IMG/VR virus record: IMGVR_UViG_3300032295_002548
Coordinates: 1 to 56,168 of that record
Strand: one strand, 5' to 3'
DNA from: a virus
Taxonomy: Duplodnaviria; Caudoviricetes
Length of the DNA: 56,168 bases
The translations under genes were made by a program, and so were the position numbers. A model generated the notes under the pieces. That model was not told where the DNA came from. It saw only the letters and a program-made list of their open reading frames with translations, and did not search any database. Below are positions 1,796-30,440 of the stretch, one piece after another. Positions within the stretch are counted from its first letter, which is position 1. Each line of letters starts with the position of its first letter.

Positions 1796-4453
1796 TTAAA
1801 CTTGGACTAGGTTGGCGCGTTGGCCGGGTCGAGTCTCAAAGCCGAGTGACATGATGGAGATGAACCCCTGCGTGTTGGTCACCTTCATCCAGCTCAAACG
1901 ACCCTGCCGGCGGGTGATCAGCGGCAGTCGAAACTCTTGCGCCATCTCCGGCTCGAACCCGGTACCGCACTGCACCGACGCCGGACCAGTCGAGTAGTCC
2001 TTGCGGTACGGACGGTTGAAGTCGTTGTTGACGTTGGTCAGGTCGTACGGCGTGTCGTTGAACTTCCAGCTCTCGGAGCGGCTGTACGTCTGATCGGTGA
2101 TCACTGCCGACTCCTCGCTGGCGCCCTCGGTGTACGACGACGCCGAGAACTTCGCCCGATTGGTGGCGAGGTCGAGGTACAGCCGACGCTGGAAGTGGTT
2201 CAGGCCAGACGTGTCGTAAGCCCGGGTGATCATCTGCACCGAGATGTCGGACACGATCGTACCACTGATATCGTTCTGCCCTTCGTCGGTGACGAAGATG
2301 CGCCCGTCCTCAGTGATGGCGTGCAGCCGCTGCAGGCCCAGATAGTCGATCACCTGCCAGCTCTGGATCGCCATCGATAGCTCCGAAGCAAAGTTCCATT
2401 CGCCGAACCACTGGTCAGTGATGAAGTTGTAGACGATGACCGAGTTGCAGACCTCGCTGTTGTCCAGCGGCAGGGAGATGTAGAGCTTGTTGCTCCAGTA
2501 CCCCATGCTGATCTTGTAGCCGTAGGCCCAGTTGACCCGGCTCATGATCTTCCGCACCCGGGCCGACAACGGCAGCGTCTTGTGCTGCATCGAGTTGTTG
2601 GTGCTGGTGAGGGTCAGCAGGTTGACGTTGCCGTAGCTGACGTAGGCCAGATCCGGACCCACCGAGACGACGGCGTTGATGCCGACCAGACCGACCTGCC
2701 GCGTGATCTCGGTGGTGGTCACGTCGGACAGGCTGCCCTCGACGTTCTGCAGCAGGATGATCGACTTGTTCTTGAAGGCGATCAGGCTGTTCTGGCCGAA
2801 CGGGAAGGTCTCAAGGATGTAGTCGCTGTTACCGGTGCTAGTGCTGATCTCGTTGGCCAACGGGTCGTAGTCGGTGAATGCCAGCACGTCGGACGCGGCG
2901 ATGTTGTCCTTGCCGTTAATGACCCACAGTCGGTTCTGGTAGTACGTCGCCTGATTGCTGCGCGGGATGCTATTGAACGTGGCCGGCAACGTCGTGTTGG
3001 GGACCGGGATAAACGTGCTATTCCAGTCGCCACTCCAGTACAGCGGGGTGCTCGTATTGCCCCGGAAGATGTACACTTGGTTGTTGGCTTGGACGATGGT
3101 CGATTGCTGCAGCACCGTCTCGCCACCCAAACTAATGCTACGACTAGTTTTTCCGTTGGCGTAGAAGCCTACCGACTCGCCACCCAGTACCATGATCCAT
3201 ACGTCGGACGGGTTGGTTGGATCCGAGAAGAGCCCCGTGGCCCAGACCGAGTTGGTCGTGGCCGCCGTCATCACCTGATTGGGCGAACCGTTGGTCGAGA
3301 CCGCCACATACTGGCCCAGCCCATAGGCCACCGACGACCAAGCGTTGCCGCTGGCAGCAGCGTGGTTGGTCCAAGTGACCCCGTCGGTCGAAAGCATGGC
3401 CGAGTTGGCCGCCACGCCCGAGTTGCCGACCGCCGAGAACGACGCACCACCGAACGTGACTGACGTCCAGTCGTCGTAAGCGGTAGTACGCGCCGTCCAG
3501 ACGATGCCGTCGGTCGAACTCATCACGCCAAGGGTGCCACTCGTGCTGGTCGTGGCCACAGCGGCAAACACGCCATTGCCGTACGCGACGCTCACGCATC
3601 CAGCCGGATCCGCCGGCGTGGTCGTGGCCACCCATGTCACTCCGTCCGTGGAGTACATCGCCCGGTTCAGGGAGCCCGATCCGCCCGAGGCGACCGCGAC
3701 ATACTTGTTCCCACCGTACGCGACTCCTCGCCAGTTATGGTTGGACTGCGAGGCAGGCGTGTTCCGCAGCGTCCACGTGAACCCATCCGGCGAGGTCATC
3801 ACCTGCGTGGTGCCTCCGTTGCCGTTGGCTACGGCGACAAAGAGCCCACCGCCGTAGGTGATGGCAGACCAGTTGTAGAGCCCGGGCGCCACCTGCTGCG
3901 TCCAAGTCAGCCCGTCGTACGAAGTCATCACCCGGCAAGCGGTGTCGAAGCCGATATCGTCGGAGGTCGAGGTGATGACCGTGTCGCCAAAGCTGGTGTC
4001 GAAGAGGTAGTAGGTCGTGCCCGAAGCAAGCGCCACGTACAGACCGTTCGCGTACGTGACCGCGGACCAGTTCAGCGCCAGTCCGGTGCTAGCGGCAATC
4101 CACGTCACGCCGTCCACCGAAGTCATCAGGTCATTGACCCCAGTGCCGTCAGACTGGACCGCCACGGTGCGGTTGGCCCCCACGGCTACGGAGACCCACG
4201 CCTTGTTCTGCGGAGTGGTCTGCGCAACCCACGAGGCGCCGAGGCCGAACGGGGTCGAACCCAGTTCCGGCAGGCAGACAAATCCGCCGCGGGTCTGGGC
4301 GTCCTGCGAGGAGAAGTCCAGATTGATTGCCTGCTGCACGTTGCCCGGACGGATGTTCTCGGACGCGTTGTACTCGTCCACGCCGGTGAACGAGCCGTCC
4401 GACACCGTCACCGGTTGGTCATCAACCTCGCCATATGTACGGTACCGGTTCAT
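1796..4453 (-). CDS. Tail nozzle / head-stabilisation protein (tail tubular B-like) with an inserted beta-propeller repeat region
   Basis: 885 aa. N-term DGSFTGVD..NLD..TRGG and C-term YYQNRLWV, VIVYNFITDQW are typical of podovirus nozzle proteins; aa ~70-400 are W..V.YG.G..VAV repeats. Confidence 0.7.
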   Translation of the reverse strand: MNRYRTYGEVDDQPVTVSDGSFTGVDEYNASENIRPGNVQQAINLDFSSQDAQTRGGFVCLPELGSTPFGLGASWVAQTTPQNKAWVSVAVGANRTVAVQSDGTGVNDLMTSVDGVTWIAASTGLALNWSAVTYANGLYVALASGTTYYLFDTSFGDTVITSTSDDIGFDTACRVMTSYDGLTWTQQVAPGLYNWSAITYGGGLFVAVANGNGGTTQVMTSPDGFTWTLRNTPASQSNHNWRGVAYGGNKYVAVASGGSGSLNRAMYSTDGVTWVATTTPADPAGCVSVAYGNGVFAAVATTSTSGTLGVMSSTDGIVWTARTTAYDDWTSVTFGGASFSAVGNSGVAANSAMLSTDGVTWTNHAAASGNAWSSVAYGLGQYVAVSTNGSPNQVMTAATTNSVWATGLFSDPTNPSDVWIMVLGGESVGFYANGKTSRSISLGGETVLQQSTIVQANNQVYIFRGNTSTPLYWSGDWNSTFIPVPNTTLPATFNSIPRSNQATYYQNRLWVINGKDNIAASDVLAFTDYDPLANEISTSTGNSDYILETFPFGQNSLIAFKNKSIILLQNVEGSLSDVTTTEITRQVGLVGINAVVSVGPDLAYVSYGNVNLLTLTSTNNSMQHKTLPLSARVRKIMSRVNWAYGYKISMGYWSNKLYISLPLDNSEVCNSVIVYNFITDQWFGEWNFASELSMAIQSWQVIDYLGLQRLHAITEDGRIFVTDEGQNDISGTIVSDISVQMITRAYDTSGLNHFQRRLYLDLATNRAKFSASSYTEGASEESAVITDQTYSRSESWKFNDTPYDLTNVNNDFNRPYRKDYSTGPASVQCGTGFEPEMAQEFRLPLITRRQGRLSWMKVTNTQGFISIMSLGFETRPGQRANLVQV

Positions 4454-22328: not shown

Positions 22329-22375
22329 GCTGGCCGTTCTTTGACATACCCACGACAAGCCCACCGGGCAGAACG

Positions 22376-22797
22376 GCGATGCCGGCGAAACGCCTGCCGC
22401 CCGACCCGGTGCCAGCTTGCGGTGGACCCCCGACCAGCCGGTGCCTTGAGGGCGACCGGCACGGATCGGCCGCCGGCGGCGCAGGGATGCGCCCCGGGCA
22501 AGACGGCCGGACGACCGGAGTGAGTAGCTCCGGAAATCACGTAGGGGGAGGACGGCGACGCGGTGCCAGCCTGCAGGGGGGTGCCGCTTCCGTTCCCGAT
22601 AAGGGGTGCCAGCCGCGAGAGCGACCGCGCCCCGTCCTGTGGTTCCTGCGATGCCGACGACACGTCTGCCGCAGGGAGGCCGAGAGAGGCGATGCCGACG
22701 ACACGTCTGCCGCCTGAGCGCCGACCATACCCGCGATGCCGACGACACGTCTGCCGTGGAGCCGACCGCCCTGCGATGCCGACGAAACGTCTGCCGC
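22376..22797 (+). repeat. 25-bp hairpin direct repeat: four clustered copies plus one isolated copy
   Basis: GCGATGCCGACGACACGTCTGCCGC consensus at 22648, 22689, 22733 and 22773; variant at 22376. Confidence 0.92.
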
Positions 22798-23006
22798 AAT
22801 GCGGAGAGGGGACGGGGGGCAGGGTAGCGGATTGGCCCCACGGTCCCCCTCGGAAGCGGGGAGCGGATGGAAGCGGGGAGTGCCCCGCGAGGGTGCAGGG
22901 TCGCCAGACGACGCTGCACCCGCCGCCTTGACCGTTGCGCCCTCGGCACCGAGGGACGCAGAACGACGCACCTTCCCCTGCCGGGCGTGAATGCCACACG
23001 CCCGGA

Positions 23007-23090
23007 GGAGTCAATGCAGCCATCGCCGCACCCTGCGGCGATGCCGGTTCCAAGCCCGGGCCGCCCTGTCGGGCGATGCAGAGGAACTCC
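23007..23090 (+). ncRNA. Twister self-cleaving ribozyme, type P1 with P3 and P5 stems
   Basis: P1 GGAGU/ACUCC; C^AA; P2 UGCA/UGCA; GC; P3 CAUCGCCGCA/UGCGGCGAUG; P4 CCGG-UUCCAAGC-CCGG; P5 CGCCC/GGGCG; GAGGA. Both pseudoknots (GC/GC, UCC/GGA) can form. Confidence 0.88.
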
Positions 23091-23112
23091 AACCCGCCAA
23101 CACGTCCCCACG

Positions 23113-23340
23113 ATGAACGCCACCCTGTCCCGCTCCGCCTCGTACCGCCTCGCCGTCTCCGCCAAGGCCGACCTCTGGCTCCCCGCCAACGGCGGCACCG
23201 AGGAGCCCTTCACGACCCGCAACGGGGTCCGCCTGCTCTACTGCTTCAACCCGCGCCTCGGCCGGCACGCTTACCTCGACCTCTCCTGCGACCACATCCT
23301 CGACGACGACGACGCCTTCCGCGCCCTCGGCCTGATCTAA
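23113..23340 (+). CDS. First early protein, hypothetical (75 aa; start corrected)
   Basis: MNATLSRS...W.PANGGTEEPF..R.G.RLLYCFNP..GRHAYLDL..D.IL; preceded by the leader motif. Confidence 0.75.
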   Translation: MNATLSRSASYRLAVSAKADLWLPANGGTEEPFTTRNGVRLLYCFNPRLGRHAYLDLSCDHILDDDDAFRALGLI

Positions 23341-23391
23341 CCCACCAACCCGTTTTCCCGTTAGTATCCAAACCAACAACACGTCATCCAC

Positions 23392-24438
23392 ATGTCCTCG
23401 TCCACTGCCTCGTACCTCGCCTCCCTCATCGCGGCCAAGCGCCGCGTCCTGTTCGTCGGCCCGCCGGGCTGCGCCAAGACCGCCCGCATCGCGGCGGCTG
23501 CCGCCGCCGCCGGTCACGACCTCGTCGTGATTCGCCTCTCGCTCGCCGAGCGGGTGGACCTCGGCGGCTGCTTGGTCCCCGACGCCGCCGGCGGCGTGAC
23601 CCGCGCCCTGCCGCTGGAGACCCTGCACCGCCTGCGCACCACCACCCGGCCGACCATCCTGCTGCTGGACGACCTCGGCCAAGCGCCCATCGACGTGCAG
23701 GCCAGCGCGATGGCGCTCTTCGACAGCGGCGCGCTGCCGGCTCACGTCCTGATCTGGGGCGCGACCAATCGGCCGGGCGACAAGTCCGGCGTGACCGGCC
23801 TGTGCGAACCGCTCCGGTCCCGGTATCACGTCGCCTTCAGCGTCGCCACGCCGGAGTCCGAGGAGAAGTCCGACGGCTCCACCTTCATCGCGCCGTGGGC
23901 CGACGAGGTCGCCGCGTGGTGCGACTGGGCCAGCGGCGAGGACTTCGCGCCGGAGATCATCGCGTGGCACCGCAGCACGACGGGCCGCACGCTGTACGCT
24001 TGGAAGCCGGTCAGCGACCCCGCGCTGCGGCTGCCCGACTTCCGCTCGTGGGAGACGGTCGGCCGCTTGTGGTCGGCCGGCCTGCGTGACCTGCGCACCG
24101 TCGGCGCGGCGATTGGCAAGCCTGCCGCCGCTGAGTTCCTCGCGTTCGCTGCGCTGGCCGATCAGCTGCCCACGCCGCAACAGGTGTGGCTCGATCCCGA
24201 CGGCGCGACGGTGCCGACCGATCCCGCTGCGCAGTACTTGATCGCGGCGATGCTCGGCCGCGCTGCGGAGCCGAAGTTCGCGACGCAGCTCGTCACCTAC
24301 TTCTCGCGGCTGCCGCGAGTGATGGGCGCTTACTGCGCCCGGGACGCTTACAAGCGGCTCGGCGCGAAGCTCGCCGGCAACGGCGCGTGGCAGCAGTGGT
24401 TCCTCGCGAACCGCCAGCTGTTCGAGACCGGCACCTAA
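23392..24438 (+). CDS. AAA+ ATPase (MoxR/dynein-related type)
   Basis: Walker A GPPGCAKT, Walker B LLLDD, sensor GATNRPGD, Arg finger PLRSR, RSWE motif. Confidence 0.88.
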   Translation: MSSSTASYLASLIAAKRRVLFVGPPGCAKTARIAAAAAAAGHDLVVIRLSLAERVDLGGCLVPDAAGGVTRALPLETLHRLRTTTRPTILLLDDLGQAPIDVQASAMALFDSGALPAHVLIWGATNRPGDKSGVTGLCEPLRSRYHVAFSVATPESEEKSDGSTFIAPWADEVAAWCDWASGEDFAPEIIAWHRSTTGRTLYAWKPVSDPALRLPDFRSWETVGRLWSAGLRDLRTVGAAIGKPAAAEFLAFAALADQLPTPQQVWLDPDGATVPTDPAAQYLIAAMLGRAAEPKFATQLVTYFSRLPRVMGAYCARDAYKRLGAKLAGNGAWQQWFLANRQLFETGT

Positions 24439-24440
24439 CA

Positions 24441-24492
24441 GGCCGAAACGCCCGCAAGGGCTTCGCACCGTCACGCGGTGCCTGATGAGGCC
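24441..24492 (+). ncRNA. Hammerhead ribozyme, type II
   Basis: GGCC-GAAA-C-GCCC(GCAA)GGGC-UUC^-GCACCG(UCACG)CGGUGC-CUGAUGA-GGCC; complete catalytic core with one C.U mismatch at the base of stem III. Confidence 0.85.
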
Positions 24493-24530
24493 AGATTGCC
24501 CCGTATCCAAACCAACAACACGTCCAACAG

Positions 24531-25343
24531 ATGAAGACCAAGACCACCACCACCGCTCCGTCCCTGATCGCCCGCAAGGCGGTCATCGCCTCGTTCACGT
24601 CGTCGCAGTGGCGCACCGTGCGCCGCCACGCCGCCGAGACCAAGGCCGAGAATGCCCGGCACGGCCTCACCGACGAGGCCCGCGTCGATGTCAAAGTGTG
24701 CAACGACCCCGCGCTCGAAGAGGCGGCGCGGATCATCACCGCAGCCCGCGCCGATCATTACCGGCTCACCGTGCCGGCCGCCGACCGCGGGATGAGGCTG
24801 CTCCCCGGCGCTCGCCAGCTGGAGCACGCCGACACCCTGCAGGCGCACGGCGTGAAGTTCCAAGCCGCTGTCGCGCAGTTCCTCGCTCGGTACGAGACGC
24901 TCCGCGCCGACGCTCCGGCCCGGCTCAACGGCCTGTACATCGCGAGCCACTGGCCCGACCTCGACCGCGTGCGCGGTTCGTTCGCGCTCTCGTGCCGCTA
25001 CCTCCCGGTGCCGGCGCTCGGTCAATGGGACGAGTGGATCGCCGAGTCGGCGAGCAACGCGACCGAGGAGATTCGCACGCGGATCGGCGAGGCGCTGCGC
25101 GCCGCTGCCGAAAAGCTGGCCGATCCCAAGGCGATCTTCCGCGACTCCCTCGTGGGCAACCTCGTCGATATCCTCAACCTCGCCGACGATCTCAACATCG
25201 CCGGCGACCCGGCGGTCGCCGACCTCGTCGCGCAAGCCAAGGCGCTCGCCAACGTCGAGCCCGACCAGCTGCGCGAGGACAAGACGCTGCGCGCCAACAC
25301 CGCCGCCCGGGCGGCCGACCTGTGCTCCCTGTTCAGCCTGTAA
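24531..25343 (+). CDS. DUF3150-like helical protein of the AAA+/vWA module
   Basis: 270 aa; HY.LTVP..DRG.RLLP, F..RY, A..RLNGLY....WP, IFRDSLV.N motifs; lies between the ATPase and vWA genes. Confidence 0.65.
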   Translation: MKTKTTTTAPSLIARKAVIASFTSSQWRTVRRHAAETKAENARHGLTDEARVDVKVCNDPALEEAARIITAARADHYRLTVPAADRGMRLLPGARQLEHADTLQAHGVKFQAAVAQFLARYETLRADAPARLNGLYIASHWPDLDRVRGSFALSCRYLPVPALGQWDEWIAESASNATEEIRTRIGEALRAAAEKLADPKAIFRDSLVGNLVDILNLADDLNIAGDPAVADLVAQAKALANVEPDQLREDKTLRANTAARAADLCSLFSL

Positions 25344-25368
25344 TCCAAACCATCAACACGTTTCCCGT

Positions 25369-26586
25369 ATGAACCCGATCAACAAAGCAACCCTGCTCCG
25401 CATCGACCGCGCCCGCTGGTGGGCGCTGTCCTCTCCCGCCGCCGTGTTTTACGGCAGCCTCGCCACCCACCTCGTCGATGTCATCGACGAGTCCATCCCG
25501 ACCGCCGCGACCGACGGCAAGCGCATCCTCTGGAACCCGACGTTCGTCGCCGGGCTCACCGACGAGGAGGTGCGGTTCGTCCTGCTCCACGAGACGTTGC
25601 ACTGCGCACACGCCCACTTCGACCGGCTCCCGCTCAATGAGCAGGGCAACAAGGCGGGCGACTACGCCATCAACCGCGTGCTGCAGGGCATCGCCGGCAT
25701 CGCGATGCCCAAGGACGGCCTGCTCGACCCGCGCTTCGACAACCTCGCCGAGGAGGAAATCCTCGCCGCCCTCGGTCGCGAGGCGCAGCCGCAGCCCGGC
25801 AACGGCAAGCCCTCGCCCGGTGCGGGTGGTGGCAAGCCGCAGCCCCAGCCCGGCAAGGGCCAGCCTGACGACGGACAAACTGGTTCGCCCGATCCCGGCG
25901 GCTGCGGTGGCTTCGTCGCCCCCGATAAGACGCCCAACCCGCAGGGCAAGACGCTCGCCGAGAAGTGGGAGCAGGCCGTGATCCAAGCCGAGTTCACGGC
26001 GAAGACCCTCGGCAAGGGCAACGCGCCGGCCGACCTCAAGCGCATCCTCGACCGCATCCGCGCCACCGACGTGGACTGGAAGCGCGAGGTCGCCGACTTC
26101 GCTCGGACCGCCATCAGCGCCAGCGCCGACTGGTCCCGCTCGACCCGCCGGATGGCGACCGCGCCGGTGATCTACCCGCGCCGCAAGCGCGACCGCGTGG
26201 GCTGCCTGCTCGTGGTGCGCGACACGTCGGGCAGCATCGACAACAAGCTGTGCGCCGAGTTCTCGGCGCAGGTCACGCAGGTCATCGCCGACCTGCAGTG
26301 CCGGGCCATCGTGCTCGACGTGGACACCCGGCTGCACGCCGAGTACCGCCTTGAGCCGGGCGACGAGTGCCCCAGCAACGCACGCGGCGGTGGCGGCACC
26401 GCCTTCACCCCGGCGTTCGACCGGCTGGCCGAGTTGCAGGACGAGGGCGAGGACATCGCCGGCGTGCTGTACCTGACCGACCTCGACGGTGAGTTCCCCG
26501 ACAACCCGCCCGACGTGCCCACCCTGTGGGTGGCGTACGGCACGACGCGCGCCGCCCCGTTCGGCCGCACGCTGCACGTGAAGTGA
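25369..26586 (+). CDS. DUF2201-type putative metallopeptidase plus vWA domain protein
   Basis: TAATDG, HETLH (HExxH), NKAGDYAIN, G/P/Q linker, MIDAS DTSGS, GGGGTAF, YLTDLDG. Confidence 0.88.
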   Translation: MNPINKATLLRIDRARWWALSSPAAVFYGSLATHLVDVIDESIPTAATDGKRILWNPTFVAGLTDEEVRFVLLHETLHCAHAHFDRLPLNEQGNKAGDYAINRVLQGIAGIAMPKDGLLDPRFDNLAEEEILAALGREAQPQPGNGKPSPGAGGGKPQPQPGKGQPDDGQTGSPDPGGCGGFVAPDKTPNPQGKTLAEKWEQAVIQAEFTAKTLGKGNAPADLKRILDRIRATDVDWKREVADFARTAISASADWSRSTRRMATAPVIYPRRKRDRVGCLLVVRDTSGSIDNKLCAEFSAQVTQVIADLQCRAIVLDVDTRLHAEYRLEPGDECPSNARGGGGTAFTPAFDRLAELQDEGEDIAGVLYLTDLDGEFPDNPPDVPTLWVAYGTTRAAPFGRTLHVK

Positions 26587-28007: not shown

Positions 28008-30440
28008 ATGAAAACCCGGTACTTCGGGGGCACTCCCGACAACCTCGGCGTCGTCCGTGCGCTGCCCGCCGAGACGTTCACCGACCTCGTATCCACCCAC
28101 CTGAGACAGCCCGTGTCCCTTGGCGTGACCAAGGCGCAGCTGCTGGCGATGCCTCCCGCCGAGGCGACCAAGGCCAAGGCCACCGACTACCTTGTCCCCG
28201 CCACGTTCAAGACCGACACGTCGCAGCGCCGCACTGAGCTGGCCGTCGTCGCGAACCTCATCTTCATCGACATCGACGACGCCATCGACGCCCGTCGTCT
28301 GCTCGCCACTGGCTTCGGCTCCCTGCTGGGCCGACTCGACTCGGTCGTCTACCACACTGCCCGCTCCACGCCGGCCGCGCCCCGGCTGCGGGTGGTGGTG
28401 TCCGCCGAGGAGGTGCCCATCGCCCGTTACGCCGAGGCCGTGCGCCTGATCGCCGCCCTGCTGGGGATGGAGGACGTATCACGGGAGTCGCTCGTCCCGG
28501 TGCAGCCGATGTTCCTGCCAACCAGTTTTGCCGATGATACCACCGACCCGGTGGTGCATTGCTCGACCAAGGGGGAAGCGTTCGTCCTGCCTCTCGCCTC
28601 CACCCTGTCGGAACTCCCCGCTGGCGAGGCCGACGCGGGTGACGTGTCCCCGCTGGAGAACCTGCGCCCTCGGATGGAGGGCGTGAACCCCGAGGATATC
28701 CGCCCCGCCCTGCAGGTCATCGACCCCGATTGTGCGATGAAGCGGTGGGTGGAGATCGGGATGGCGCTGAAGCACCAGTTCGGGGACGAGGGCTACGCCC
28801 TGTGGGACGACTGGTCCGCCCGGGGCAAGGCCAAGTACCCCGGCTCCGATGCAACCCGCCGCCGGTGGGATTCGTTCGCCGGCCAGACTTCCAACCGCGT
28901 GCCCGTCACGCTGCGCACCGTCCTCCGCATTGCCGAGGAGTCAGGATGGGACAACAAGTTGGCCGGTGAGAACGTCTACTCCCGCACCGTGGACTGGATC
29001 ACGTCGTCAACCCGTTCGACGGAAGAGCTGCTCGACCACGCGGCCGGCCGCATCTCGGCGATCTCCCCGCTGATCGGTCCCCTCAAGCAAGCTGCGCTGG
29101 TGGGCACGCTCGCCCGCACCCTGAAGAACCGCGGCATCCAAGGCGTGACCGCCACCAGCCTGACGCAGGTGGTGAAGGACAACATCAGCGAGAGTACCAA
29201 GCCAACGCAGCCTCCGACGTGGGCATCTGGGGTGGTGTTCGTCACAGCGAGCAACCTGTTTTACCGTTACGTGGACAACCGCAAGCTGAAGCCGGAGGTG
29301 GTGGACCTGATCTATCGTTCACCCGATCCAGAGAAGCGGCCCCGTGAGTGGCTGATCCACGACGCCAACATCAAGGTGGTGGAGAACCTGCGCTACGACC
29401 CCGAGACCAAGGCCCGGGTGGTGATGTACGATGGCGTGCCCTTCTGCAACACGTACCGCCCGACGTACCCAGCGCCCGACTACGGCCAGCTGCAGGAGGT
29501 GCTCGACTTCTTCAGCGCGCACGCCGACCACGTGTTCACCTCGCAATGGAGCCGCACGATGTTCGACTTCGGCGCGTATCTGGTGCAGCACCCGGGCAAG
29601 AAGATCAGGTGGGCACCGCTGGTGCAGAGCGGGGTGGGTGCGGGCAAGGGGTTGTGGGCTGGCCTGCTCACCCGGGCGCTGGGCTTCAGCAACGTGCAGC
29701 GTTTGTCTGCTGAACACGTTCTTGAGGCGACGTACAACTCGTGGGCCAGCGGCTATCAACTCACGGTGATGGACGAGGTGTACAACGTGGGGGCCAACAG
29801 CCACCGCACGATGAGCAAGCTGAAGCCCAGCATCTCGGACGACTTCGTGTCGGTGCGTTCATTGTACGAACCTGTTCAGACGGTGCCGAACATAATGAAC
29901 TTCCTGATGTTCACGAACTACCACAACTCGCTGGCCGTACACGACAGCGACCGCCGGTACTTCGTGATCAAGTCCCCGCTTCAAACCAAGGACGACATCC
30001 TCGCCCTTGGTGGGCCGGCCTACTTCGAGCACGCGTACAAGCTGTTGTCCTCTCACGCCGCCGGGATCCGCGCCCTGTTCGAGAGCTGGCCCATCTCCAA
30101 GGACTTCCCCGCTGATGGGCGTGCCCCCATCACGCCGTTCCTCGGTGAGCTGGCTGCGGCCACAGCCTCCCCGCTGGCAGCCGCCGTGCAGGACGCGCTC
30201 GACGACCGGCCGCACGCCCTGCTGCAGCCCGACCTCCTGTCGCTGCCCGTGCTGCGCGCTCATCTCCCCGCTGATAGGTTGTCCCACTTCACCGATCAGG
30301 GTCTGGCCTCGGTGCTACGGGAGAAGGGGTTCGTCTCCGCTGGTCGGCACTCGTTCGACGGGGTGCGTCACGCCCTGTGGGTGCGGGGATTCAAGGGTGA
30401 TCCGGTGGCTGAGGCGAATGCCCGGCGTGAAGTTTTGTGA
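28008..30440 (+). CDS. Primase-helicase (AEP prim-pol, PriCT-2, SF3/DUF5906-type helicase)
   Basis: IFIDID, YHT..S....PRLRVV, WVEIGMALK..G..LWDDWS, Walker A GVGAGKG, Walker B VMDE, FTNY, DRRY. Confidence 0.9.
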   Translation: MKTRYFGGTPDNLGVVRALPAETFTDLVSTHLRQPVSLGVTKAQLLAMPPAEATKAKATDYLVPATFKTDTSQRRTELAVVANLIFIDIDDAIDARRLLATGFGSLLGRLDSVVYHTARSTPAAPRLRVVVSAEEVPIARYAEAVRLIAALLGMEDVSRESLVPVQPMFLPTSFADDTTDPVVHCSTKGEAFVLPLASTLSELPAGEADAGDVSPLENLRPRMEGVNPEDIRPALQVIDPDCAMKRWVEIGMALKHQFGDEGYALWDDWSARGKAKYPGSDATRRRWDSFAGQTSNRVPVTLRTVLRIAEESGWDNKLAGENVYSRTVDWITSSTRSTEELLDHAAGRISAISPLIGPLKQAALVGTLARTLKNRGIQGVTATSLTQVVKDNISESTKPTQPPTWASGVVFVTASNLFYRYVDNRKLKPEVVDLIYRSPDPEKRPREWLIHDANIKVVENLRYDPETKARVVMYDGVPFCNTYRPTYPAPDYGQLQEVLDFFSAHADHVFTSQWSRTMFDFGAYLVQHPGKKIRWAPLVQSGVGAGKGLWAGLLTRALGFSNVQRLSAEHVLEATYNSWASGYQLTVMDEVYNVGANSHRTMSKLKPSISDDFVSVRSLYEPVQTVPNIMNFLMFTNYHNSLAVHDSDRRYFVIKSPLQTKDDILALGGPAYFEHAYKLLSSHAAGIRALFESWPISKDFPADGRAPITPFLGELAAATASPLAAAVQDALDDRPHALLQPDLLSLPVLRAHLPADRLSHFTDQGLASVLREKGFVSAGRHSFDGVRHALWVRGFKGDPVAEANARREVL

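Follow-up and report, generated by a model that had tools for sequence, protein, structure and literature searches.

A type II hammerhead ribozyme lies two bases downstream of an AAA ATPase gene in the genome of a complete freshwater phage (56,168 bases; this whole stretch of DNA is referred to as the window below), and at position 16.2, within its cleavage triplet, it carries a U in place of the canonical G. The hammerhead itself is an ordinary and well-known kind of element, and it is the allele that makes it interesting: U and G occur as natural variants of each other at the same site in related contigs. The best explanation, to which we give a probability of roughly 0.68, is that of a working type II hammerhead in an early or replication operon, which splits the transcript together with a twister-P1 ribozyme further upstream and in which the U allele attenuates cutting.

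The layout of the element can be read from the plus strand, with core positions numbered by the standard hammerhead nomenclature:

24441-24499, plus strand: type II hammerhead (minimal motif 24441-24492; the model match reaches 24499)
24441-24444 with 24489-24492, plus strand: stem II, GGCC with GGCC, 4 bp, from the sequence
24445-24447 and 24448, plus strand: first part of the core, G12 A13 A14 followed by A15.1, from the sequence
24449-24462, plus strand: stem III hairpin, with C15.2 (24449) opposite U16.2 (24462), four G-C pairs and a GCAA loop
24450-24453, 24454-24457 and 24458-24461, plus strand: letters of stem III, GCCC, GCAA loop and GGGC, from the sequence
24462, 24463 and 24464, plus strand: cleavage triplet U16.2, U16.1 and C17, from the sequence
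24464..24465, plus strand: predicted cleavage site 3′ of C17, placed by hammerhead numbering
24465-24481, plus strand: stem I hairpin, GCACCG-UCACG-CGGUGC, 6 bp plus a U.G pair
24482-24488, plus strand: second part of the core, C3 to A9, CUGAUGA, from the sequence

Along the strand, one side of stem II is followed by GAAA, hairpin III, UUC, hairpin I, CUGAUGA and the other side of stem II, i.e. loops cap stems I and III and stem II is open, as in the type II permutation. The conserved core is complete (C3-A9, G12 A13 A14, the A15.1-U16.1 pair formed by A24448 and U24463, and C at 17) and is surrounded by three helices, of which stem III comprises four G-C pairs plus an A-U pair past the mismatch. 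Direct reading of the sequence thereby confirms the original prediction of a type II hammerhead with a full CUGAUGA/GAAA core and three stems, and the position that it proposed for the cut, after C24464 (UUC), agrees with the core numbering. The C15.2.U16.2 mismatch that it pointed out is likewise real: the Watson-Crick 15.2-16.2 pair is missing, C24449 standing opposite U24462, and a check by hand found no alternative register that avoids the mismatch without breaking stem III. Stem II does have the length of 4 bp given for it; calling this ‘only 4 bp’, however, is wrong for the family, in which stem II measures at least 4 bp in 51 of the 137 listed copies, 3 bp in 64 and 2 bp in 22. Stems II as short as two pairs are also described as common by Perreault et al. 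2011 (PMC3088659).

With regard to family membership, generic evidence for the window's hammerhead is weak and subfamily-specific evidence is strong. The search with Hammerhead_II (RF02276) that had been suggested for this element does return it, at 25.0 bits, although this lies under the gathering cut-off of 37; the E-value is 0.0054 over 351 nt and 0.87 over the whole window, in which Rfam has no match at gathering level. Canonical short-loop relatives also fall below the RF02276 cut-off (27.9-33.1 bits), as does the G allele of L247, a related contig described below (28.9 bits). As a control, the same model at E-values up to 10 found matches in 11 of 14 control genomes, none of them above the cut-off, and the bare core pattern gives four matches in the window versus 2.46 expected, which is not significant. 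A pattern for the subfamily (GCCC/GGGC stem III), in turn, finds more than 120 stretches with G at 16.2 in viral contigs and none in genome contigs. Its non-G version returned three stretches in the genome contigs (U 2, A 1), which by eye have no convincing stems I and II and were set aside as chance matches.

Phage type II hammerheads with G at 16.2, 124 distinct copies in all and none of them from the window, were used to make an alignment (A2) and a covariance model (R1). With filters off, R1 matches the window's hammerhead over its full length (1-66 of 66) at 49.9 bits and an E-value of 4.4e-13, a rough figure given the shortened calibration; the runner-up match anywhere in the window reaches 13.2 bits. 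The invariant columns of R1 are those of the collecting pattern, meaning that the score partly restates the pattern; the pattern has no bearing on the spacing or on stems I and II. It is in these stems that selection on pairing can be seen: 93% of the cells of stems I and II are paired in A2 versus 70.9% in shuffles, none of 500 shuffles being as high. In stem I, 94% of cells are paired and all seven pairs show changes on both sides, as do three of the four pairs of stem II; pairing in stem III is fixed by the pattern and hence uninformative. That the motif could be a chance resemblance to a hammerhead core is an idea to which the Rfam E-value of 0.87, the loose core pattern being no commoner than in shuffles and the matches in 11 of 14 control genomes might lend some credit. 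It is rejected on the R1 score and on the presence of the same element at the same site in three related contigs; with this orthologous conservation and a twister-P1 partner upstream also standing against it, we consider it next to impossible.

Natural hammerheads need a tertiary contact at low Mg. In the window, loop I and the 3′ tail share no complementarity longer than 2 nt, and therefore no tertiary contact that would serve at low Mg was recognised in this hammerhead. Of the copies listed for the family, 39 of the 49 with a long loop I and 12 of the 88 with a short one reach at least 4 nt here, and most type II hammerheads are reported to have a pseudoknot of at least 4 bp, formed by loop I with the tail that follows stem II on its 3′ side (PMC3088659).

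Other members of the viral set have features of their own. L090, L100, L117, L121, L132 and others form a subclass ending in ...CUGACGAG-GCC-GUCAGAG, in which the tail GUCAG exactly complements the core CUGAC. Position 7 is always C in that CUGACGAG subclass, and the GUCAG tail may form an alternative hairpin that masks its core. Four type II hammerheads each are packed into 1.1-5 kb in L092 (7848-12875) and L248 (3057-4182), and two of those in L248 have a ribosome-binding site and start codon about 10-20 nt downstream.

The hammerhead of the window is embedded in a compact group of genes and elements:

23008-23089, plus strand: probable twister-P1 self-cleaving ribozyme (RF03160, 41.9 bits), 5′ boundary of the bracketed segment
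23113-23340, plus strand: small ORF of 75 aa without a known family, read from the sequence, between the twister and the ATPase gene
23392-24438, plus strand: AAA ATPase gene, 348 aa (phrog_1297 ‘ATPase’, E 1.4e-37; Pfam AAA PF00004, E 7.6e-5)
24503-24533, 23364-23394 and 25341-25371, with a weaker copy at 23085-23115, plus strand: A/C-rich leader, the copy at 24503-24533 ending at the ATG of the 270-aa ORF
24531-25343, plus strand: ORF of 270 aa without a known family, the first gene 3′ of the predicted cut
25369-26586, plus strand: DUF2201 gene (PF13203, E 9e-28, metallopeptidase-like N-terminal; PF09967, E 4e-19, VWA-like)
28008-30440: primase gene, further downstream

The ATPase stop codon, TAA, occupies 24436-24438 and the hammerhead starts two bases later, an arrangement typical of the family: 121 of 137 listed copies have a stop triplet in the 9 nt that precede the motif, compared to 39% of shuffled 9-mers. 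Because no terminator-like site was found on the plus strand between 22400 and 27400, a single transcript is likely, and the genes from the twister to DUF2201 are likely to be co-transcribed. Twister and hammerhead, with 1.35 kb between them, bracket the small ORF and the ATPase gene in what we infer to be one operon. Neither the small ORF nor the 270-aa protein has a family in Pfam (E up to 1) or NCBIfam, the 270-aa protein has no PHROG match, NCBIfam offers no name for the ATPase and DUF2201 proteins, and blastn of 23392-26586 against deposited phage genomes returned no match. The 270-aa protein has 167 confirmed relatives in viral contigs, the best 80 of which were retrieved.

The A/C-rich leader gives three matches at up to three mismatches where none is expected. 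Its sequence, TATCCAAACCAACAACACGTC, is followed by 5-7 nt and then ATG, and it precedes four consecutive genes of the operon with no obvious Shine-Dalgarno sequence. Upstream of the twister, within about 1.2 kb lacking an assigned gene, a repeat of 35-36 nt (GCGATGCCGACGACACGTCTGCCGC...) occurs in five direct copies (22370-22808), four of which are spaced 40-44 nt; these repeats could be iterons or operator sites.

The twister was found by searching the whole window at a relaxed threshold, where it scores 41.9 bits with an E-value of 7.1e-6; RF03160 has its cut-off at 67.2. The match is full-length, spanning positions 1-68 of 68, and departs from the consensus in two places: the P4 loop reads UUCC where the consensus has UCCC, and GAGGA replaces GAGGG. 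Parsing by the P2 helix worked for 31 of 39 distinct viral-contig copies collected for a covariation analysis, and in these 31 the two positions covary without exception (C with G 22, U with A 9, mixed 0). One of the two belongs to the P4 loop and the other to the GAGGR segment, and they presumably pair in the solved structure. As there are no mixed cases among the 31 parsable copies, the window's twister represents a compensated and common U-A variant. In comparison with Rfam twister-P1 it is thus full-length and consistent with the covariation, although below the cut-off and with a C instead of a U before the cleavage-site A. The related contigs L246, L247 and L249 have a twister upstream as well, and L004 has one on the 5′ side of its ATPase gene. 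Indels make the four-way alignment unreliable to the left of 23350, and twisters were compared by direct alignment; that of L246 shows compensatory changes in the P1 helix relative to the window. In L246, positions 2739-3270 (minus strand) correspond to 22992-23346 of the window and hold a different twister (47.8 bits) together with an unrelated ORF of about 110 aa, with flanks about 95% identical to the window on both sides. Twister and small ORF appear to have been exchanged there as one ribozyme-headed cassette.

Taken together, this organization suggests how the operon might be expressed. A single left-to-right transcript would contain the twister-P1, the small ORF, the AAA ATPase gene, the hammerhead, the 270-aa gene and DUF2201 (VWA-like). 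Cutting after C24464 would give the ATPase message a 3′ end consisting of the stem III hairpin and a 2′,3′-cyclic phosphate, and the downstream message a 5′ end with a 5′-hydroxyl, the stem I hairpin and the conserved A/C-rich leader. Cuts by both twister and hammerhead would release the small ORF and ATPase message as a separate RNA, and the two halves of the operon could then differ in stability and yield. In this scheme, U16.2 would be a natural allele of the canonical G, under purifying selection, that leads to slower or partial cutting.

In viral copies of this subfamily, U is the usual exception at this position. Of 138 listed family matches, 133 have G at 16.2 and five have U, and the subfamily pattern applied to all viral contigs finds nine non-G stretches (U 8, A 1, C 0), the window not being among these nine; all of these counts cover only copies with a GCCC/GGGC stem III and C at 17. 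By reading, the U copies amount to seven lineages including the window's, L178 and L207 being identical over 1260 nt and L088 and L204 sharing 97% identity from the ribozyme on. Were the three letters equiprobable, the chance of at least seven of eight lineages having U would be 0.0026 according to a hand calculation. L088 and L204 both have U, and the sixth pair of their stem III differs (C-G vs G-C); with U kept next to this compensatory change, stem III is therefore still maintained in a U lineage. The sole viral subfamily copy with A16.2, and thus a C.A mismatch, is L205 4031-4085, which has otherwise good stems and a loop I-tail pseudoknot. A literature search for a natural C15.2.U16.2 or a G/U polymorphism at 16.2 found none; weak stems III are very common among type II hammerheads according to Perreault et al. 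(PMC3088659), and the alignments of Dataset S1 and Figure S8 (weak stems III) of that paper may hold such cases.

The most direct view of the allele comes from the closest relatives. Scanning metagenome contigs with a pattern specific to the window's hammerhead, in which 16.2 was left free, yielded three collinear contigs, L246, L247 and L249. Together with the window these show 92.6-95.7% mutual identity in the two flanking genes, and all three have a twister upstream and a hammerhead downstream of the ATPase gene. When the relatives were checked for the allele, as the original prediction had proposed, 24462 turned out to be U in the window, L246 and L249 and G in L247 (letters T, T, G, T); from 24418 to 24570, the four genomes differ at no other column. 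In the flanking coding sequence, 181 of 1757 columns vary, and 25% of third-codon positions, as opposed to 1 of 59 columns of the hammerhead (P 0.013) and 1 of 92 of the spacer (P 0.0005); these and the following P values are binomial, with columns taken as independent and shared ancestry ignored. Limited to the three genomes with the U allele, the flanking coding sequence varies at 129 of 1757 columns and at 18.8% of third-codon positions, compared to 0 of 59 in the hammerhead (P 0.011) and 0 of 92 in the spacer (P 0.0009) at the coding rate, or P 5e-6 for the hammerhead at the third-codon rate. Among the four genomes, the unpaired bases of the core are as conserved as the stems, which would not be expected of a ribozyme that is no longer functional. 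Since the hammerhead is invariant beside variable flanks, the alternative offered in the original prediction, a decaying copy, is not supported. Judging from these alignments, purifying selection maintains U as a natural allele at 16.2, and the mismatch does not point to decay.

Maintenance in these phages does not extend to all genomes with the same genes. R1 finds a hammerhead in four of 82 viral loci coding for relatives of the ATPase or the 270-aa protein (L003, L009, L010 and L084), and those of L003, L009/L010 and L084 are all located 5′ of the ATPase gene; between the ATPase and 270-aa genes, none was found among those 82 loci. At the junction occupied by the window's hammerhead, L003 (4033-4124) and L004 (4045-4130) instead have long, GC-rich perfect hairpins without a U tract. 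Furthermore, a contig from run X6 (depth 41) joins 24436 to 24499 via GATCCAA, replacing 24437-24498; the shorter side of this joint is only 30 letters long and the likeness threshold was 88. The X6 contig would represent a closely related phage that lacks the hammerhead and has TGA as the stop codon. From the L003 and L004 hairpins and the X6 contig, the hammerhead is apparently dispensable at the ATPase/270-aa junction.

How the mismatch might affect the ribozyme was addressed by folding the two natural 52-nt alleles in ViennaRNA, with the tertiary structure of the core ignored and the size of the effect uncertain:

G allele (L247): hammerhead fold -27.4 kcal/mol, which is the minimum-energy fold; ensemble share 0.49; P(A15.1-U16.1) 0.84
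U allele (window): hammerhead fold -21.6 kcal/mol, minimum-energy fold -24.1 kcal/mol; ensemble share 0.004; P(A15.1-U16.1) 0.007
24429-24445, plus strand: predicted competing hairpin in which the end of the ATPase gene pairs with stem II's GGCC strand plus G12, the minimum-energy fold in context

The predicted cost of U compared to G at 16.2 is about 6 kcal/mol. Stems I and III are present in the minimum-energy fold of the window's hammerhead. For the 52-nt U allele, G12-C17, A13-U16.1 and A14-U16.2 are predicted to form a decoy helix stacked on stem II. In the model, U16.2 would hence both remove a pair and create a decoy in which general base and cleavage-site nucleotide are concealed. Because U removes the C-G pair and allows the decoy helix, slower or partial cutting is the most likely outcome: a lowered fraction of actively folding molecules is predicted and seems somewhat more probable than no effect in vivo. 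The slowed ribozyme of the original prediction is accordingly a plausible reading of the folding results. When 152 nt of native sequence are folded, stem II is predicted to form with a probability of just 0.02-0.03 in both alleles, as it is outcompeted by the hairpin at 24429-24445, and it is speculation that terminating ribosomes relieve this hairpin. The one RNA contig from this region (run X19, depth 2.9) covers 24264-24444 only and bears no information on cleavage. A published precedent comes from Carbonell et al. 2006 (PMC1636495), in whose work co-transcriptional cleavage depends, by way of metastable folds, on the trinucleotide that precedes the cut. Pairing at the innermost arm positions of minimal hammerheads, where the recognition nucleotide lies, is described as highly sensitive for cleavage by Fukuda et al. 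2014 (PMC3923133), with reference to Werner and Uhlenbeck 1995.

Carried one step further, the prediction leads to the tentative and rather doubtful idea that U16.2 is a selected ‘dimmer’ allele, which would make a constitutive ribozyme partial or conditional via the decoy helix. If this were true, the cut fraction would set the ratio of ATPase to 270-aa/VWA-like message, cutting could be coupled to ribosomes that end two bases upstream and melt the hairpin at 24429-24445, and the repeated, independent occurrence of U, almost never A or C, would represent convergent tuning.

Three other explanations of the U allele need to be weighed against that of an attenuated, working ribozyme. A recently broken copy heading to decay would account for the loss of a pair that is C-G in 133 of the 138 listed family matches, and for a related phage variant without the element such as the X6 contig. 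It is difficult to reconcile, however, with 0 of 59 variable columns in the trio, where 129 of 1757 flanking columns and 18.8% of third-codon positions vary, or with the U allele being found in separate metagenome contigs besides the window, and we hold it to be highly improbable. A more serious contender is that the U allele is inactive, or nearly so, and is kept as a structured spacer, with two stable hairpins that protect RNA ends or bind a protein, or as part of the conserved translation leader. The entire 92-nt spacer is invariant, beyond the ribozyme itself, and the constraint could therefore partly be non-catalytic. Plain GC-rich hairpins at the same junction in L003 and L004, the predicted occupancy of 0.004 for the active fold and the critical role reported for the innermost pairing in minimal hammerheads (PMC3923133) all point in the same direction. 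A hairpin needs neither CUGAUGA nor GAAA, though, and these unpaired segments are intact in four genomes despite 25% third-codon variation. Loss of function, moreover, predicts no bias of the kind seen, in which U is favoured over A and C (8, 1 and 0 stretches), and L088 and L204 keep U and yet repair stem III by a compensatory change. On balance, we regard an inactive spacer as unlikely.

Finally, the conserved island might act chiefly as DNA, i.e. as a recombination boundary or mobile cassette, with RNA cleavage being incidental. Homology between L088 and L204 begins exactly at the hammerhead, with 97% identity downstream and none upstream. L208 shares with L086, L094 and L153 only a hammerhead island of 77-84 nt (95-97%) and a stretch of 53-73 nt about 200 nt downstream (87-90%). 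In both cases, hammerheads mark mosaic boundaries. The X6 contig, which suggests presence or absence of the element, and the swap of twister and small ORF as a unit in L246 fit a DNA-level role, too. The covariation in stems I and II, on the other hand, reflects selection on RNA pairing rather than DNA sequence, and the roles of module boundary and ribozyme are compatible with each other. We thus consider a role chiefly as DNA very unlikely and favour the working hammerhead with an attenuating U allele.

Viewed this way, the locus constitutes a natural experiment, in which two alleles one base apart beside the catalytic core occur in otherwise identical ribozymes, within a conserved two-ribozyme bracket around an ATPase gene. 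The junction even provides an allelic series of U allele, G allele, plain hairpin and no insert. Comparing these natural variants bears on gene dosage in operons as well as on the importance of the 15.2-16.2 pairing in its natural context, at a time when there is no settled answer yet as to what hammerhead and twister ribozymes do in bacteria and phages (PMC6155905).

Much of the setting is familiar from earlier work. In three publications (PMC3088659, PMC6155905, PMC8782182), type II hammerheads are described in phage-related polycistronic units, several ribozymes around small unconserved ORFs are known, and hammerheads occur alongside other self-cleaving classes. Compared to the type II hammerheads of RF02276 and PMC3088659, the window's copy shows the same permutation, a full core, a short stem II and the same placement between polycistronic phage genes near another self-cleaving ribozyme; it differs in having no loop I-tail pseudoknot, a short loop I, C.U for C-G and a sub-cut-off Rfam score. 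The type II hammerheads of Desulfovibrio vulgaris are likewise near phage-like genes and are active in vivo by cyPhyRNA-seq (PMC8782182); these copies have been shown to cleave, whereas cleavage by the window's hammerhead is a prediction. In the hammerheads of eggplant latent viroid, the identity of 16.2, 16.1 and 17 affects cutting via inactive folds, as is predicted here for UUC. The viroid variants are of type III, however, and keep the 15.2-16.2 pair by changing both sides; UUC has 0 occurrences in the paper (PMC1636495). A parallel to the bracket itself is the triple hammerhead around ardA of Agrobacterium tumefaciens, in which ribozymes also bracket one or two genes in a longer transcript (PMC3088659). 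Such multi-ribozyme arrangements (PMC3088659; De la Pena review, PMC6155905) share with the window a phage-related setting and unconserved, bracketed small ORFs, but the bracket described here is made of a twister on the 5′ side and a hammerhead on the 3′ side, and its cargo includes a conserved AAA ATPase gene.
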